The translations under genes and the position numbers were made by a program. Below are positions 1,709-7,755 of a DNA stretch of 61,451 nucleotides, in pieces. The notes under the pieces are model-generated. The model had not been told where the DNA came from and searched no databases. It worked only from the letters and a program-made list of their open reading frames with translations. The first letter of the stretch is position 1, and every line of letters begins with the position of its first letter. The DNA is taken from NCBI GenBank assembly GCA_903900905.1, contig CAIUPC010000584.1, forward strand, positions 1-61,451, in the 5' to 3' direction. This DNA is from an uncultured Acetobacteraceae bacterium (GTDB lineage: Bacteria; Pseudomonadota; Alphaproteobacteria; Acetobacterales; Acetobacteraceae).

Positions 1709-2025
1709 GTGCAGCCCGCCAGTGCGCCGTTGATAGCGCGTGCAACCGCCCGGCCTTCGTCGGTCGGCATGACCACCACAAGCCGCCGATCCTCGGGGTC
1801 CGTGGCGCGCTGCAACAGGCCGTGCAGCGACAGGCGATCCAGCGCGCGGGTCACGACCGGCTTTTGCACGGCGAGCGCCTTGGCGATTTCGCGCACGCCC
1901 AGCCGGGGCACCGTCGCATGGGGTCGTGAGCCGTACACCGCCTCCATGACAGCCAGTTGCCGCAGCGACAGATCAAGAGGCGCGATTTTCTCGTGGCGCA
2001 CCAGCGCACAGAACGGGGTTTTCAA
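1705..2025 (-). CDS. MarR-family winged-HTH transcriptional regulator
   Basis: TTG start overlapping the gcrA stop; LSLRQLAVM...GVREIAKALAVQKPVVTRALDRL...GLLQRATDPEDRR is a MarR signature. Confidence 0.8.
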   Translation of the reverse strand: MKTPFCALVRHEKIAPLDLSLRQLAVMEAVYGSRPHATVPRLGVREIAKALAVQKPVVTRALDRLSLHGLLQRATDPEDRRLVVVMPTDEGRAVARAINGALAGCT

Positions 2026-2546
2026 GCGAGATCTCCTTTGGATTGATTGTCGCGCATGTCGCGCACCGGCACGTAGGCAACGCGCATGTGATCCGGGCAG
2101 TACGGTCGCCCCGGCACGCCTGCGGCTTCGCAGAACCGAAACGCCGGGGTTCCGGGGTCGCCAAGCGGGAAACAGCAGGGCTGCGGCTTGACCGATTGGA
2201 ACACCACGGGCGGCGGTGGCGGCGGTTCGGGCGGTGCCTGGATCACCGGGCGCGTGGCGCGACGTGGCGCGGCGTAAGATGCGACCTGCGGTAGCGTGGC
2301 GCTGCCCTTGGGCACGCGCTGCACGGCGATCTTCTTGGGCGTTCCGGGTGGCGGGATGGGCGAAGGCCGAGGCGTCAGGCCGAGGCGATGCGCCTTGCCC
2401 ACCACGGCGCTCTTGCTGCACCCCAACGCGCGGCCGATGACTGAGCCTGAATGGCCTTCCTCCCACATCTCGCGCAATTTGGCCTCGTGCTTCGCCCAAT
2501 CGACCGTCTCGATGGCGTGCGTCCGCTTTGCGTTGAGCGCCATCAC
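2022..2546 (-). CDS. gcrA: GcrA-family cell-cycle regulator homologue
   Basis: N-terminal W...LREMWEEGHSGSVIGRALGCSKSAVVGKAHRLGL and C-terminal CCFPLGDP..FRFC...GRPYCPDH..AY. Confidence 0.88.
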   Translation of the reverse strand: MMALNAKRTHAIETVDWAKHEAKLREMWEEGHSGSVIGRALGCSKSAVVGKAHRLGLTPRPSPIPPPGTPKKIAVQRVPKGSATLPQVASYAAPRRATRPVIQAPPEPPPPPPVVFQSVKPQPCCFPLGDPGTPAFRFCEAAGVPGRPYCPDHMRVAYVPVRDMRDNQSKGDLA

Positions 2547-4261
2547 TCGTCTCCCTCGTTGTCCGCCTCGGGCACATCACCTTCCTCGTCCCACGCTGCG
2601 GCGCTTGCACGCGGCTTGAACGGCGGTGCGTCAAACAGTGCGGGCGCCGGTCGCCAGTCGGGCAGCTTGCCTTCCAGCGCCTTGCGCATGGCGGAAACCT
2701 GCACCGGCACGGCGATGTCGGCCTCGCGGGCGGCGCGCGTCAGTTCCTCGCCTTTCAGCACGCCCAGCATTTCCGCGTCGTCGAGGCGCGGCGGGTCGAT
2801 GTCCAGCAGCGCGCCCACCCAATCCGCCATCGGGCCGCTGCTGGTGAACACGCCGGGCCCCGGACAGACCAGCACGCGGGCGATCATCTGGCACGCGATG
2901 TCCGTCACGTTGTCAGGCACCATTACGCGCCCATCTGCGTTGAAAAACGCGGGCAGCAGGTCATCGAAGCGCCCGCTGTGACCGTTGGGGTGCGGTGCGC
3001 CCCGGATCGACACATTCCGCGCCGCCAGCGTCAGGCACAGCGCGGCCAGCAACGTGCTGGGCCGAGTGCCCGGCTGATGTTCCAGCCCGGCCCGCAGCAT
3101 CGCATCCTTGCGCGCGGCGATCAGGTCGAGTGCTTTCTTCGTGTAGGCGTTGGTCGGTTCGCCTTCGCCGGCGTCGGGTGCATCTGTCGCCTGCGCTGCG
3201 GGCTTTGCCTTGGCCGATTTCTCGGCCATCGGCAGCGCGTAGCGGCGCACGATTGCTCCCATGTTCCAGCCGCTATCCACCACGGCGGTCACGATCTTGC
3301 CGGGGTCGCCCTTCTTGAGCGGCTTGGTGATGTCGATGTTGGTATATGCGAGTTCCCACCCGGCAGGCGGCTGCAACTGGCCGTCTTTCATCGTGCCCAG
3401 CAGCGGGCGCTTGCTTGCGGCAAGACGCTGCACGTCCTCGCGCAGCGCGGCAGTCTGGCAGTGCAAGAATTTTTCGGTGTCGGTGGTGGTAAATTGCTCG
3501 TCCGAGCCGGGTTCCGCGAACAGGTCTTCCTCGAACGTCAGGCCCACGGTGGCCTGGGCGGTAGCAGCGTCAAAGATTGCCCGTTTGAGCGGAATGCGGG
3601 TGCGTCGGCACGCCTGTTCAATCTGCCACCAAAGCGGTTCGTTGGCATTGCTGCGTTCCGCCCAAACCGCCGCTTGCACGTCGAGTGGCGCGTTGGCGAT
3701 GGTTGCCAGCGTGGAGAGCTTGGGCATGTCGCGGGCTGGCAATGCTGCCATCGCGTCCAGCATTGCGGGCAGAATGCGGCCCAGCACGCTCATGCGCCTC
3801 AAGTGCGCCTCGCCCATGCCCAGCGCCATTGCTGCCGTCTCTGGCGCGCAACCCTGCGCCACCATGCGCTGCACGGCGCGCCACTGGTCCACCGGGTGCA
3901 TCGGTGCCCGGACCATGTTCTCGGCGGCCTGCGACAGCGACGCATCGCCCGCCCGTTCGGCGACCAGCACCGCCATGATGTCCGTCCAGCCCAGCGCGCG
4001 GGCCGCACGCACGCGGCGGTGGCCGAATACCACCTGATGCCGCCCGGTCAGCGCATCGGCGGGCCGCAGCCCCACCGGCTGCAACAGGCCCAGCATGGAC
4101 ATGCTGGCGCGTAGCCCGGCGTCGGCATCGCCATCGGCTGCCACCCGGCGCACGTTGCCGGGGTCGTCGTCGATCAGCACCAGCGGCACGGTCCATGCCG
4201 CGGCGGGCGGTGCCGATGCGAAAGACCCCGCATCGGCTTCGGCTTGTGTGATGGTCAGCAT
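2543..4261 (-). CDS. ParB/RepB/Spo0J-family protein (ParB CTPase N-domain plus HTH, long C-terminus)
   Basis: NVRR...LRASM..LGLLQPVGLR...VVFGHRRVRAA...ENMVR motifs; start MLTIT at 4261 overlaps the stop of the Tas-like gene. Confidence 0.85.
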   Translation of the reverse strand: MLTITQAEADAGSFASAPPAAAWTVPLVLIDDDPGNVRRVAADGDADAGLRASMSMLGLLQPVGLRPADALTGRHQVVFGHRRVRAARALGWTDIMAVLVAERAGDASLSQAAENMVRAPMHPVDQWRAVQRMVAQGCAPETAAMALGMGEAHLRRMSVLGRILPAMLDAMAALPARDMPKLSTLATIANAPLDVQAAVWAERSNANEPLWWQIEQACRRTRIPLKRAIFDAATAQATVGLTFEEDLFAEPGSDEQFTTTDTEKFLHCQTAALREDVQRLAASKRPLLGTMKDGQLQPPAGWELAYTNIDITKPLKKGDPGKIVTAVVDSGWNMGAIVRRYALPMAEKSAKAKPAAQATDAPDAGEGEPTNAYTKKALDLIAARKDAMLRAGLEHQPGTRPSTLLAALCLTLAARNVSIRGAPHPNGHSGRFDDLLPAFFNADGRVMVPDNVTDIACQMIARVLVCPGPGVFTSSGPMADWVGALLDIDPPRLDDAEMLGVLKGEELTRAAREADIAVPVQVSAMRKALEGKLPDWRPAPALFDAPPFKPRASAAAWDEEGDVPEADNEGDE

Positions 4262-5307
4262 TCGATTGATTCCCCTTCGGAGGTGTTGGCAGCGCACGCC
4301 TTCCATGCCCGCCATAGATGTTCGACAAGCGCCTTGGTCATGACGCGCCGCGCGTCAGCATCCCGGTGGCCCAGCGTCCAATCGCGGCCTTCGGTCGCAG
4401 CCTTTCGACGGGCATATATTTCGCCGTAGATGCTGATGGCATGGGCGGGCGCATCGTCTTTGGCGCCGCGCCATTGGTGGCGGAAGAAGCTGTCCGCAAC
4501 GGCCCAAATTTCCGCACGGCGGGCCGGGCTGTAGCCATGCTCTTTGGCCGCGTCCGCGCCGGACTTGCGCTGTTGGCGTTCACCGTTGATGACGGCGAGG
4601 CCGAGGCGCTTCCACAACTTTTCGACGGTGGCGTAGTTGGACAGGTCGCCTGCTTCACCGACGATGATCGCAACGCCCTTCGGGCCGAGGCCGCGCACGC
4701 CCGATGCCCACGCCCAGACGGGCAGCGACTTCGCCAGCACTTCCATGCGCTTTTCGGTTTGCGTGCGGTGCGCGTCCCACGATTGGCGGGCTTGCGCGGA
4801 CAGCAGAATTAGCGGGGCGGCATCGGCATGTTGCCCTTGTCTGTTGCCAGCATGATCCTCACGGCCGATGCCGCCCTTCTCCACCTCGCGGCGGATGCGT
4901 TGCGCTTCGGCGAATGCCGCCTTGCGCTGTTTTTCATCTTGCTCGGCGTTGAACCCCAGACCGCGCGCAATGAACGACTCAATGGATCGGTCGCACCGGC
5001 TTTGGGATTTGATGCAGAAGCGCCGCTGCGATTGCAGTTCGCGCATCTCGGCAATGATGGCGGCTAGGTCATGTGCATTGTGGCTCGAACGAGCAACTAG
5101 TCCGTGGACCTGACCGCCGGGGGGCATTTCTTGATTGGCCGCGCTCTGTGGCAGCATATCAACGGCCCCCGTCTCGGAATTGGTGGCGATGGAAGCACTC
5201 GCTGTGCGGCGCTTGCGCGCACCCCTTCCGTGGCCTCCATCGCCTTGGGGCATCGCTTCAATGGCCGGATTAACCGGCATTGGGTGCTCGGCCCCAATCT
5301 CAAACAT
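4255..5307 (-). CDS. TasA-like Nop/IS110-Tnp-domain RNA-binding protein without an N-terminal RuvC/HNH nuclease
   Basis: Coiled coil (MRELQSQRRFCIK...RTQTEKRMEVLAKSLP) then GVRGLGPKGVAIIVGEAGDLSNY.TVEKLWKRLGL...YGEIYARRK...HRDADARRVMTKALVEHLWRAW, typical of the IS110/Nop C-terminal fold. No DEDD domain. AAGGAG RBS before the ATG at 5307; alternative ATG at 5046. Adjacent to and containing guide-like units. Confidence 0.8.
   Translation of the reverse strand: MFEIGAEHPMPVNPAIEAMPQGDGGHGRGARKRRTASASIATNSETGAVDMLPQSAANQEMPPGGQVHGLVARSSHNAHDLAAIIAEMRELQSQRRFCIKSQSRCDRSIESFIARGLGFNAEQDEKQRKAAFAEAQRIRREVEKGGIGREDHAGNRQGQHADAAPLILLSAQARQSWDAHRTQTEKRMEVLAKSLPVWAWASGVRGLGPKGVAIIVGEAGDLSNYATVEKLWKRLGLAVINGERQQRKSGADAAKEHGYSPARRAEIWAVADSFFRHQWRGAKDDAPAHAISIYGEIYARRKAATEGRDWTLGHRDADARRVMTKALVEHLWRAWKACAANTSEGESIEC
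4815..4876 (-). ncRNA. TIGR-like stem-loop guide unit 8 (inside the Tas coding region)
   Basis: GGGCGGCATCGG-CCG-TGAGGATCA-TG-CTGGCAACAG-ACA-AGGGCAACA-TG-CCGATGCCGCCC; perfect 12-bp outer stem. Confidence 0.8.
5059..5297 (-). ncRNA. TIGR-like stem-loop array, units 4-7
   Basis: Four units at 5245-5297, 5185-5244, 5120-5170 and 5059-5118, each stem-CC(A/G)-N9-TG-hairpin(10 or 13 nt)-CC(A/G)-N9-TG-complementary stem. Confidence 0.9.
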
Positions 5308-6037
5308 CGCCGTTCTCCTTCGCCTGTTCGTACAGCCGCGCCGCTTCTTCGCCCGTGCGGTATGTTCGGATCGGTAGGTGCGGCGGCAGGTTCGCGGTCA
5401 GCAGGCGGACAAAACGAACGTCTCGTGCGTGGCTGTCCGCCCACGCATTCGCTTCCGCCGATGTCAGGTCGCCAATCGGCATTCCGTTCGCCTTGAACGT
5501 GTCCAGCAGCGACTTGGCAGCAACGGCACCAACGGCGGCCATGCCCGCAGTGCCTTTGGCAGCACCGCCCGGCAGCGCGCGGGAATGCGCCGTGACGGCT
5601 ACAGGTTTGACGGAGGGGGCATATGCACATTGGCCAGTGTCGGCAGCGTTTTGTTGGCCCCCTCCGTCGTCCGAGGCGTGCGGCATAGGCGTAGCGGCCT
5701 TGCCGGGCACCCGGTCATCGGCCGCACGCTCGGAATTTTGGGAAGGGGCAGCCTGCTTCTGGCCAGTATTGGCAGCCAGCCTCTGGCCCCTTCCCGCTTC
5801 CCGCTGCAACGTCGCCGCTGCCTCGGTCAGCAACCTATCCAGCGCAGTGTATCGGTAATGCTGAAACAACGCGCGCAGCAGCGCCGCATCGGTTTCCACC
5901 GCCGCCCACACCACGTTGGCCGCTTCTGTGCGCGCCGGGTGACGCGCCAGTGCGTCGATAGCAATCTGGCGTAGCGTGTCCACCGATGCTTTGTAGCCCG
6001 CTGCGATGAACGCCTCGCGCATCGTTGTGTCAGTCAT
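5300..6037 (-). CDS. Hypothetical protein whose central linker is encoded by guide units 1-3
   Basis: 245-aa ORF with protein-like N-terminal (helical) and C-terminal (SLLDTFKANGMPIGDLT) parts flanking the array; coupled to both neighbours. Confidence 0.7.
   Translation of the reverse strand: MTDTTMREAFIAAGYKASVDTLRQIAIDALARHPARTEAANVVWAAVETDAALLRALFQHYRYTALDRLLTEAAATLQREAGRGQRLAANTGQKQAAPSQNSERAADDRVPGKAATPMPHASDDGGGQQNAADTGQCAYAPSVKPVAVTAHSRALPGGAAKGTAGMAAVGAVAAKSLLDTFKANGMPIGDLTSAEANAWADSHARDVRFVRLLTANLPPHLPIRTYRTGEEAARLYEQAKENGDV
5609..5795 (-). ncRNA. TIGR-like stem-loop array, units 1-3
   Basis: Units at 5740-5795, 5676-5729 and 5609-5668, e.g. GGGAAGGGG-CCA-GAGGCTGGC-TG-CCAATACTGG-CCA-GAAGCAGGC-TG-CCCCTTCCC. 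Confidence 0.9.
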
Positions 6038-6039
6038 CG

Positions 6040-7755
6040 TTATGCGCCCCGCTGGTTGAACTCGGCGCGCAGCGCCGAGGCGTGGTTGCGCAGGCGGGTT
6101 TTCAGCGTCACGGGCAGCAGCGCCATTTCGGCGTTGAACTCCGTCTCGTTGCCGAGCGCGGTCAGGTGATCCGCGTTGCCGCAGGCATTCACGCGCTGCA
6201 TCAGGCGCAGGAACGCCGGGCCGTGCTCGCCTAGATCCTCGGCGGGCTGGGGCGCGTCGTCAGGCTGCGCAGGCGGGGCGCTGGCCGGTTGTGCCGCCAC
6301 ATGCTGCCGAGAGGCTCCCAGCGCATCGCCACGATCCGCGATGGCCTTCTGCGAGGCCTTGCGGGTCACGCTGGGCAGCGTTCCGATGACGCCCGCGTTG
6401 AGGTTGGACCACGCGGCCAGATCGTCTGCCGTGTTGATTGCGGCCAGATGGTCCGCCACCAGCGCCAGATAGCCGCCCAGATCGGGCTTGCCGCCCTTGG
6501 TGGGCACCGTCAGCGGTGCGGGCGCTTTCGCTTGCTGTGCGGCGGGTGCGCCCACCAGCGCCGCAACGTCGGCATCGAACGCCTCTCCCGCTTTCGGGTT
6601 CGCTCGCCGTGCCGCGTCGATTTCATCGGCGTTGTTCTCCATCAAGGCGGGCACGTTGCGGCTGGTCAGCGCCATGTTGGACAGCGCACGCAGATACACG
6701 GCGGGGTCGCGGAAATGGCTGTTGCCCTCCGCCAATTCCCCGAACTCGTCCACCAGGTATGCCTCGTATGGGCCGGGGTCGGGCTCGCGCGGCGCATGGG
6801 GCTGGGCAGGCGCGGCGGCGTGCGTCTCAGCCTCGGGCCGCACGTCCGGTGCGGTAGCAGCGGGGGCCTGAGCGGCGGGCTGTGCGGCCGCCTGCATGGC
6901 GCGTGCGGCTTGTTCGGCAGCGAGGCGGGGCGGGTTCTGCTCCACAATGCCGTTGGGCATCATCACGCGCAGCGATTCCGCAGCACGGCGGAATTCGGCT
7001 TCGCCACCGGCCCGCGTTGCGTCGCCCAGCCCGCTGATCTGGTCCAGCGTCAGCGCTTCGACGAGGCGGCGATCAATGGGCACCGACTTCGATGCAGCGA
7101 ACCGCAGCACTTGCGACCGCTTTTCCTCCAACACGGAGTCGGTGATCACATCGTCTTTGCCGAGTGCCAGCATCTTGTGCTTCCACTCGAGTTGCACGGC
7201 TTGGTCAATAATCGCCAGCACCGCGTTGCGGTACGCCTTCGCCTCGGCAATCACGCTGTAATGCGGCCGGGCAAATTTTGACCCGTCGCGCCGCGATTCC
7301 AGCGCCGACTCGCGCTTGCGGACTTGCAGCGTGTTGCCCGTCTTGATGTCCGTCACTTCGACAAGGACTTCGTAGTAGTCGTCCTCGGCCTTGAGCGCGT
7401 CGATCAACTTCACATCGACATTCATCGGCACGCCGTCAGCCGGGTAGCTGGTGAACGTGAACAGCGCGCCGATTTTCGTCACGCTCGCCAGCAGGCGATG
7501 CTTGATGCCGCCATAATGCGAGGCCAGATGGCGCGCACCGATCACGCTAATGCCGGTGACTTCGGTGCCGCTCACCTTGAACGAATAGACGAACTTGCTG
7601 CTGCCGCTGCCGTGGATGATTTCCTGCGCGATCAGGGCATTGTCGCGCTCGTCCATAACGTGCCAAGCGTCCACGTCGAAGCTGCCGCTGGCGTTGCGTA
7701 CGGCTTCCAGTGTTTGGGTGCGCGCTCGTGTCGGCGCGTTGCCAAAACCGCTCAT
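6040..7755 (-). CDS. Hypothetical protein, possibly recombination/ssDNA-annealing related
   Basis: 571 aa with a globular N-terminal domain and Ala/Pro-rich linkers; function inferred only from early-operon position. Confidence 0.5.
   Translation of the reverse strand: MSGFGNAPTRARTQTLEAVRNASGSFDVDAWHVMDERDNALIAQEIIHGSGSSKFVYSFKVSGTEVTGISVIGARHLASHYGGIKHRLLASVTKIGALFTFTSYPADGVPMNVDVKLIDALKAEDDYYEVLVEVTDIKTGNTLQVRKRESALESRRDGSKFARPHYSVIAEAKAYRNAVLAIIDQAVQLEWKHKMLALGKDDVITDSVLEEKRSQVLRFAASKSVPIDRRLVEALTLDQISGLGDATRAGGEAEFRRAAESLRVMMPNGIVEQNPPRLAAEQAARAMQAAAQPAAQAPAATAPDVRPEAETHAAAPAQPHAPREPDPGPYEAYLVDEFGELAEGNSHFRDPAVYLRALSNMALTSRNVPALMENNADEIDAARRANPKAGEAFDADVAALVGAPAAQQAKAPAPLTVPTKGGKPDLGGYLALVADHLAAINTADDLAAWSNLNAGVIGTLPSVTRKASQKAIADRGDALGASRQHVAAQPASAPPAQPDDAPQPAEDLGEHGPAFLRLMQRVNACGNADHLTALGNETEFNAEMALLPVTLKTRLRNHASALRAEFNQRGA

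Follow-up and report, generated by a model that had tools for sequence, protein, structure and literature searches.

The closest described relatives of the locus reported here are stem-loop TIGR systems of the BlTasA type. In the available text of a preprint by Xu et al. (bioRxiv 10.64898/2026.09.09.750476), stem-loop units are placed at the 5' end, at the 3' end or inside of tas with the frame intact, and tigRNAs from within tas are reported as sequenced for Bifidobacterium longum BlTasA. The same text leaves open what matures stem-loop tigRNAs and what role TasA plays in phage. Two further relatives appear in the accessible text of Faure et al. (Science 2025, PMC12045711): the stem-loop array of a Peromyscus gut TasA, with sub-arrays split by an intergenic region, and the tasParB-tasA operons, with dual-repeat arrays beside or between the genes.

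Our window is a whole contig of 61,451 bases, in which a partner gene and tasA, overlapping on the minus strand, carry seven guide-like hairpins. As in the BlTasA type, as far as Xu et al. is available, TasA is a solo Nop-domain protein whose long N-terminus is disordered, the boxes are CCA/UG, units stand in frame within tas, and extended loops fold into a second stem. Unlike the BlTasA type, whose units are described inside tas, the window has three units in an upstream gene that is distinct from tas and conserved, and its units show no evident CUU motif; by our own definition of the stem base, CUU was found near it in 28 of 213 strict units and in 0 of 6 window units examined. With the Peromyscus gut array, as given in the accessible text, the locus shares a nuclease-less Tas, multiple sub-arrays, and units in which a palindromic stem encloses a pair of 9-nt spacers, each running from a box C to a box D; in the window, however, the sub-arrays are coding. 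As in the tasParB-tasA operons of that text, a second gene is operonised with tasA, and a ParB-like gene (4315-2543, minus strand) directly follows tasA in the window, overlapping or abutting its end; unlike in those operons, the window partner gives no ParB match and the units lie in its linker. By the predicted Tas fold, the boxes, the spacers, and the variable closing stems, the locus belongs to stem-loop TIGR-TasA.

The contig codes for terminase, major head, tail sheath, baseplate, and integrase proteins, and for repressor, DnaB helicase, RuvC-like, and ParB-like proteins. Since structural genes, an integrase, and a repressor occur together, its gene content identifies it as a temperate phage or prophage. 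The partner gene and tasA sit in a minus-strand gene run after the repressor gene, and the same run holds a phage-borne GcrA homologue (2022-2546, minus strand; Pfam E=1.4e-22). No Rfam family was matched by the locus, and three DNA runs, consisting of contigs from a single lake-water study and possibly including the source, revealed no variants.

The seven TIGR-type stem-loop units follow the pattern CC[A/G]-N9-TG-loop-CC[A/G]-N9-TG, each inside a palindromic stem, and all are on the minus strand. Three lie in the linker of the partner gene: unit 1 (5740..5795, core 5786-5749, 9-bp stem), unit 2 (5676..5729, core 5721-5684, 8-bp stem, boxes CCG/CCG), and unit 3 (5609..5668, core 5657-5620, 11-bp stem). 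Four lie in the N-terminal part of tasA: unit 4 (5245..5297, core 5291-5251), unit 5 (5185..5244, core 5233-5196), unit 6 (5120..5170, core 5165-5125), which has the weakest fold and contains an in-frame ATG at 5157, and unit 7 (5059..5118, core 5107-5070), whose 3' stem arm encodes the opening residues of the conserved Tas helix. No unit of the locus is intergenic. All seven have 9-nt spacers and CCA or CCG as box C. From unit 1 to unit 7 the loops are 10, 10, 10, 13, 10, 13, and 10 nt long and the box-to-box distance is 24 or 27 nt throughout, as an initial sequence-only reading had given them. The stems comprise 4-11 contiguous pairs, with 4 in unit 7, and differ in sequence from unit to unit. 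Six of the seven units fold with z scores from -2.5 to -5.6, and unit 6 has z -1.5. In sequence terms these hairpins have the layout of TIGR guide RNAs.

The pattern is specific. In the 5.59-Mb assembly there were 17 strict matches with a stem of at least 5 bp, and the sole cluster among them (6 of the 17) is this locus. Over 116 loci, all 263 occurrences of the unit pattern fell on the tas strand, none on the opposite one, and patterns with 8- or 10-nt spacers gave 0 matches in 93 representative loci. A dual-repeat TIGR array was ruled out, as neighboring units are 58-68 nt apart with variable stems and loops, versus the identical repeats and 36-nt period of such arrays. The sequence-only reading had also taken the multiple-of-3 box spacing for a coding constraint, which did not survive comparison: 167 of 189 coding units have it, as do 108 of 124 others (p=0.73), and under the strict pattern the counts are 142 of 156 and 47 of 57 (p=0.09); kin loci are not independent, and p-values overstate. 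Coding units with 8- and 9-nt loops also exist. The spacing reflects the usual 18-nt geometry.

The downstream gene, tasA (4255..5307, minus strand), codes for a 350-aa Nop-domain protein with no nuclease domain, residues 1-80 of which are encoded by units 4-7. Its core profile matches the TasR chain 9MTY (E=1e-7), and the protein matches phrog_4285 (E=4.5e-20). The structure model (pLDDT 93.5) matches TasR and TasH structures with E values of 1.5e-6 to 3.6e-4, and the best 10 Foldseek matches are all TasR or TasH. At least 17 proteins in Table S1 of Faure et al. (PMC12045711), as far as that source is accessible, share the TasA core motif. A single-protein tas scan of viral contigs gave no match. 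From profile and model, the gene is tasA, predicted to code for an RNA-guided DNA-binding protein. An IS110 recombinase was ruled out: the N-terminal DEDD RuvC-like domain is missing and the model matches IS621 more weakly (E about 0.07). An N-terminal HNH or RuvC domain is likewise absent, and Pfam gives just a weak match to PF02371.

The two genes overlap by 8 nt at the junction (5300..5320, minus strand), where AAGGAG (5320-5315) stands 7 nt ahead of the tasA ATG (5307-5305) and the partner stop occupies 5302-5300. The first hairpin begins 10 nt past this ATG, which confirms the earlier placement of AAGGAG before ATG 5307 and of units 4-7 just after it. This arrangement suggests translational coupling from the partner gene to tasA. 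The sequence-only reading had named a start at ATG 5046, with units 4-7 as 5' UTR, as the alternative. That start does not fit the homologues, in which the column is internal. Of the 95 aligned rows, 8 are gapped at this column; among the other 87, the residue is Leu 58 times, Ile 25 times, and Met twice. The hydrophobic helix pattern continues upstream of Met 5046 into the stem of unit 7. The anti-SD duplex amounts to -8.8 kcal/mol at 5307 and +1.3 at 5046; it is -8.6 at ATG 5157 inside unit 6, from which a shorter TasA could possibly be made. N-terminal extensions of more than 30 aa, full of unit-like quasi-repeats, occur in 114 of 120 homologues as called by gene callers, which favor long ORFs.

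The same junction recurs among relatives, where the 8-nt overlap of the window is the commonest offset between partner and tas. The gap between the two genes is at least 90 nt in 71 of 79 pairs, and across these 71 gaps the tas frame is stop-free in 46 cases and the other two frames in 13 and 6. Among the 40 gaps that bear strict units, the tas frame is open in 31 and the other frames in 8 and 3, and 27 combine a start at the partner stop with an open tas frame.

The partner gene (5300..6037, minus strand) codes for 245 aa, or 240 aa if read from ATG 6022, arranged as a helical N-domain (about residues 1-93), a linker with units 1-3, and a small C-domain (about residues 164-243). Both domains are confident in the structure model and the middle is disordered; homologues likewise have an N-domain and a C-domain flanking a variable linker. 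Coordinates, homologue domains, and model agree with the earlier placement of units 1-3 in mid-ORF between two domains, and the quasi-repeat peptides quoted for these units are present in the translation.

Members of this family accompany tas widely. With an iterated C-domain profile, one was found beside 80 of 87 non-redundant tas loci (four of the 87 obtained solely via the partner), upstream of tas in 79. The seven remaining loci comprise three truncated ones, three with a plausible diverged gene as judged by eye, and one with unrelated genes. Three of the 14 loci obtained via the partner (L012-L014) have a partner-family gene and neither tas nor units. In these three, a small gene that looks HTH-like by eye closely follows the partner, with an ATGA/GTGA overlap in L012 and L014. 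On this gene order, the partner is a frequent, non-obligatory operon companion of tasA. The family comprises 2,075 clusters at E<=1e-10, and a unit-encoded peptide motif occurs in 74 of the best 150 members, compared with 4.0 in shuffles. Strict linker units are present in 26 of the 84 partner members having a start, or 28 with a relaxed pattern; 58 of the 84 carry no linker unit under the strict pattern. Among 35 strict linker units, 32 are in offset 2, 3 in offset 1, and 0 in offset 0. Two isolated phages have related arrangements. In Rhizobium phage RHph_X2_25, a partner (E=8e-18) is accompanied by a pair of units within tas and a single intergenic one. In Mycobacterium phage Rich, gp51 is a weak partner match (E=6e-4) with two units at its 5' end, and gp50 carries three units.

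Pfam and PHROGs hold no family for the window partner, and a PDB sequence search and Foldseek against PDB and BFVD gave no match. VIA-align gave a best Z of 4.9, to generic N-domain helices with the C-domain barely covered, and the Atlas gave no usable match. None of the 80 partner members matched ParB in Pfam or PHROGs at E<=0.01, and tasParB was ruled out as an identity for want of a ParB-like domain. A sample of 200 other genomes from the phylum yielded no partner, and neither did a tblastn search of the phage collection.

The proposal that both genes are coding through their arrays is supported by comparison with relatives. In all 27 loci with a match to a narrow N-domain profile (window included), 18 of which carry units, the N- and C-domains of the partner stand in one ORF, so that reading of ORF 5300-6037 through its array is favored as well; this profile was built from six database proteins alone, which makes the count non-circular and leaves 59 of 86 loci unmatched. 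The other two frames are stop-free over the linkers of these 27 loci in 9 of 36 cases. With a broad, partly circular profile, the domains share one frame in 83 of 84 cases with 49 distinct linker lengths. Both partner domains are under purifying selection, with pN below pS in 14 of 14 pairs, and the coupled tas start is conserved.

Taken by itself, the window has two of its three frames free of stops across the partner linker, and for seven units the absence of one frame has p=(2/3)^7=0.06, which is not significant, so both points rest on the homologues. The earlier observation that no unit sits in the frame in which the TG box would start a codon holds in the window, where the codon offsets are 2, 1, 2 for units 1-3 and 1, 2, 1, 2 for units 4-7, and extends to relatives, where 2 of 156 coding units use that frame. 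A TGA would arise there for 75 of the 156. It was rejected as the whole cause of the avoidance, as 2 of the 81 units without a would-be TGA are in the TG-first frame; inheritance from earlier units, or selection acting against paired Cys/Trp, may play a part. Spacers of coding units contain in-frame stops in 0 of 764 triplets versus 97 of 1,882 out of frame, a count that is partly circular since coding status was defined via the ORF.

Close relatives indicate how the units change. In an alignment of L024, L025, and L026, boxes and stems are kept and spacers are swapped in place. The units of L024 and L026 differ at about 40% of sites, whereas in their domains the share of changed sites is 2-3% (non-synonymous) and 21-32% (synonymous). 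The corresponding pN/pS values are 0.03/0.21 for the N-domain, 0.02/0.32 for the C-domain, and 0.37/0.48 for the units, which evolve fast among close relatives with pN near pS. This comparison points to in-place spacer replacement. Whole-unit indels had been expected to keep the frame, and this is partly so. The one whole-unit indel between L024 and L026 (54 nt) is in frame, and in relatives 29 of 55 adjacent unit pairs are in register; in the window, neighboring units are 65, 64, 58, 68, and 58 nt apart, none of these divisible by 3, so that deleting one unit from box to box would put the downstream sequence out of frame.

Embedding in coding sequence is optional rather than required, to judge from 9 of 40 unit-bearing partner-tas gaps that are closed in the tas frame and from Rhizobiales-type loci (L066-L085), whose mostly intergenic units stand ahead of the partner and in the partner-tas gap. 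These loci often have CG instead of the TG box. Frame breaks were also seen. In L003 and L011 the coupled tas ATG is out of frame, and the units fall in the TG-first frame and meet stops; in L096 the partner domains are in different frames just past a unit, and L004 has a break in the tas core. All of these breaks are at single-base runs and none is a whole-unit indel, and they could possibly reflect assembly error, decay, or slippage. The breaks at L003:4215-4245 (a G run) and near 1395 in L096 (an A run) are both beside units.

Units were also observed elsewhere in relatives. In the Tas core they occur at the tip of the coiled coil, at L002:5042-5073 and similarly in L003, L005, L007, L008, and L092, and 17 of 18 strict core units are in offset 2. 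The TasA of the window has no unit at this position, where its model is of low confidence. Arrays of 3-6 strict units lie downstream of tas at L024:3825-5165, L025:3807-4466, and L026:3825-4652, all in offset 1 within one open frame and with spacings divisible by 3; since they lack a consistent conserved flanking domain, their translation is uncertain. The frame goes along with the first base of the loop: a TGA context is seen in 64 of 103 offset-2 versus 11 of 51 offset-1 units, and this link could come from lineage history or from selection on the encoded peptide.

Taken together, we read the locus, with a probability of roughly three in four, as a stem-loop TIGR-TasA phage locus whose hairpins lie in two overlapping genes and are both translated and a source of guides. 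The array stretches of both genes would be translated as disordered protein, and one partner-tasA mRNA would serve as message and as guide precursor. By analogy with the family, the hairpins would be released singly as tigRNAs and loaded on a TasA dimer, and the complex would occupy 18-bp sites in target DNA, blocking transcription but leaving the DNA uncut. A processed molecule would lose its capacity as message for both genes. Embedding may be a tolerated form of genome compaction that saves space, in which any new or altered guide would have to stay out of the TG-first frame and create no in-frame stop, and the array peptides would be largely neutral filler in disordered regions. Searches with all seven units in both spacer arrangements found no target in the own assembly at 0-1 mismatches, and mismatched-pair controls there gave as many near matches as the real spacers. 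When all strict units were compared with the window and the 93 representative loci, just 6 matches came up, at 2 mismatches. In IMG/VR, two of the seven predicted targets were searched; one gave 4 records (2 distinct sequences; about chance level, as estimated without a control) and the other 0.

A skeptical alternative is that GC-rich DNA leaves these frames open by chance and that the arrays are untranslated, with units 4-7 a 5' UTR and ORF 6037-5300 unread. The two stop-free frames over the window linker, the near equality of pN and pS in the units, and third-position GC, which falls from about 0.74 in the domains to 0.61-0.64 in the arrays, are all consistent with it. The continuity of the domains in all 27 loci of the narrow profile and 83 of 84 of the broad one, the purifying selection on both domains, and a start conserved at the coupled ATG and not at Met 5046 nevertheless make it very improbable. 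It is also improbable, if less so, that internal promoters make the guides as separate small RNAs, so that the overlap is one of DNA and no mRNA is sacrificed. Processing and internal transcription are indistinguishable in the data given in the text of Xu et al. (10.64898/2026.09.09.750476). Against such promoters, no sigma-70-like site was found on the minus strand in 4200-7600 (a weak test in a GC-rich phage), and many would be needed, as units of relatives stand at three or more separate coding positions including the Tas coiled-coil tip.

Other alternatives give the partner or the shared message a function of its own. It is, in our view, less likely than not that the partner is a dedicated second component, such as a processing factor, a co-repressor, or a loading aid, which carries guides through co-evolution with TasA. 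Its presence at 80 of 87 tas loci, 79 times upstream and often overlapping the tas start, is consistent with this, as is its occurrence with tas in the two isolated phages, strong in RHph_X2_25 and weak in Rich. This idea is weakened by L012-L014, where a partner without tas or units is coupled to the small HTH-like gene, and by the 80-member alignment, which has no invariant residue and hence no obvious catalytic site. Moreover, other TasA proteins are described, in the sources as far as available, as binding processed guides and repressing in E. coli, with constructs that may include a partner-like gene. A feedback circuit as raised in the sequence-only reading, in which TasA-dependent cutting of the partner-tasA message limits synthesis of TasA and the partner, seems rather unlikely to us. 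The geometry would permit it, with four hairpins that start 10 nt past the tasA start codon and three more in the gene coupled to it upstream. Dual-repeat systems need Tas for detectable tigRNA according to the accessible text of Faure et al. (PMC12045711), and a link between maturation and Tas translation is suggested in that of Xu et al. (10.64898/2026.09.09.750476). On the other hand, stem-loop Tas proteins are reportedly without the Y/H processing dyad, a host RNase may mature the guides, and relatives work with intergenic units. TasA of the window ends about 15 residues past the last conserved Trp, in a tail that has no Tyr or His. A wider proposal strikes us as doubtful too: the partner family would be the missing second component of stem-loop TIGR-TasA (a co-repressor, say, or a factor for guide maturation), with a linker that also serves as guide array, and competition between translation and processing on the one coupled partner-tasA message would set the system's level. 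The reading that both genes are translated through their hairpins and also yield guides remains the one that we prefer.

As to whether the arrangement was previously uncharacterised, that claim does not stand for units inside tas, which the available text of Xu et al. (10.64898/2026.09.09.750476) already describes; it may stand for units in the partner gene, in that we found no account in the literature of units in a non-tas gene or of the partner family, where figures or supplements may show such loci. The isolated phage Rich, whose laboratory host is Mycobacterium smegmatis and which has units in both genes, makes testing practical. The coding flanks provide a clock for spacer change, which bears on spacer acquisition in TIGR systems. 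The partner family is a candidate for both questions left open in the available text of Xu et al., the maturation of stem-loop tigRNAs and the role of TasA in phage. Array finders limited to intergenic DNA or to tas would miss guides in neighboring genes, and the guide repertoires of these systems are therefore likely undercounted.
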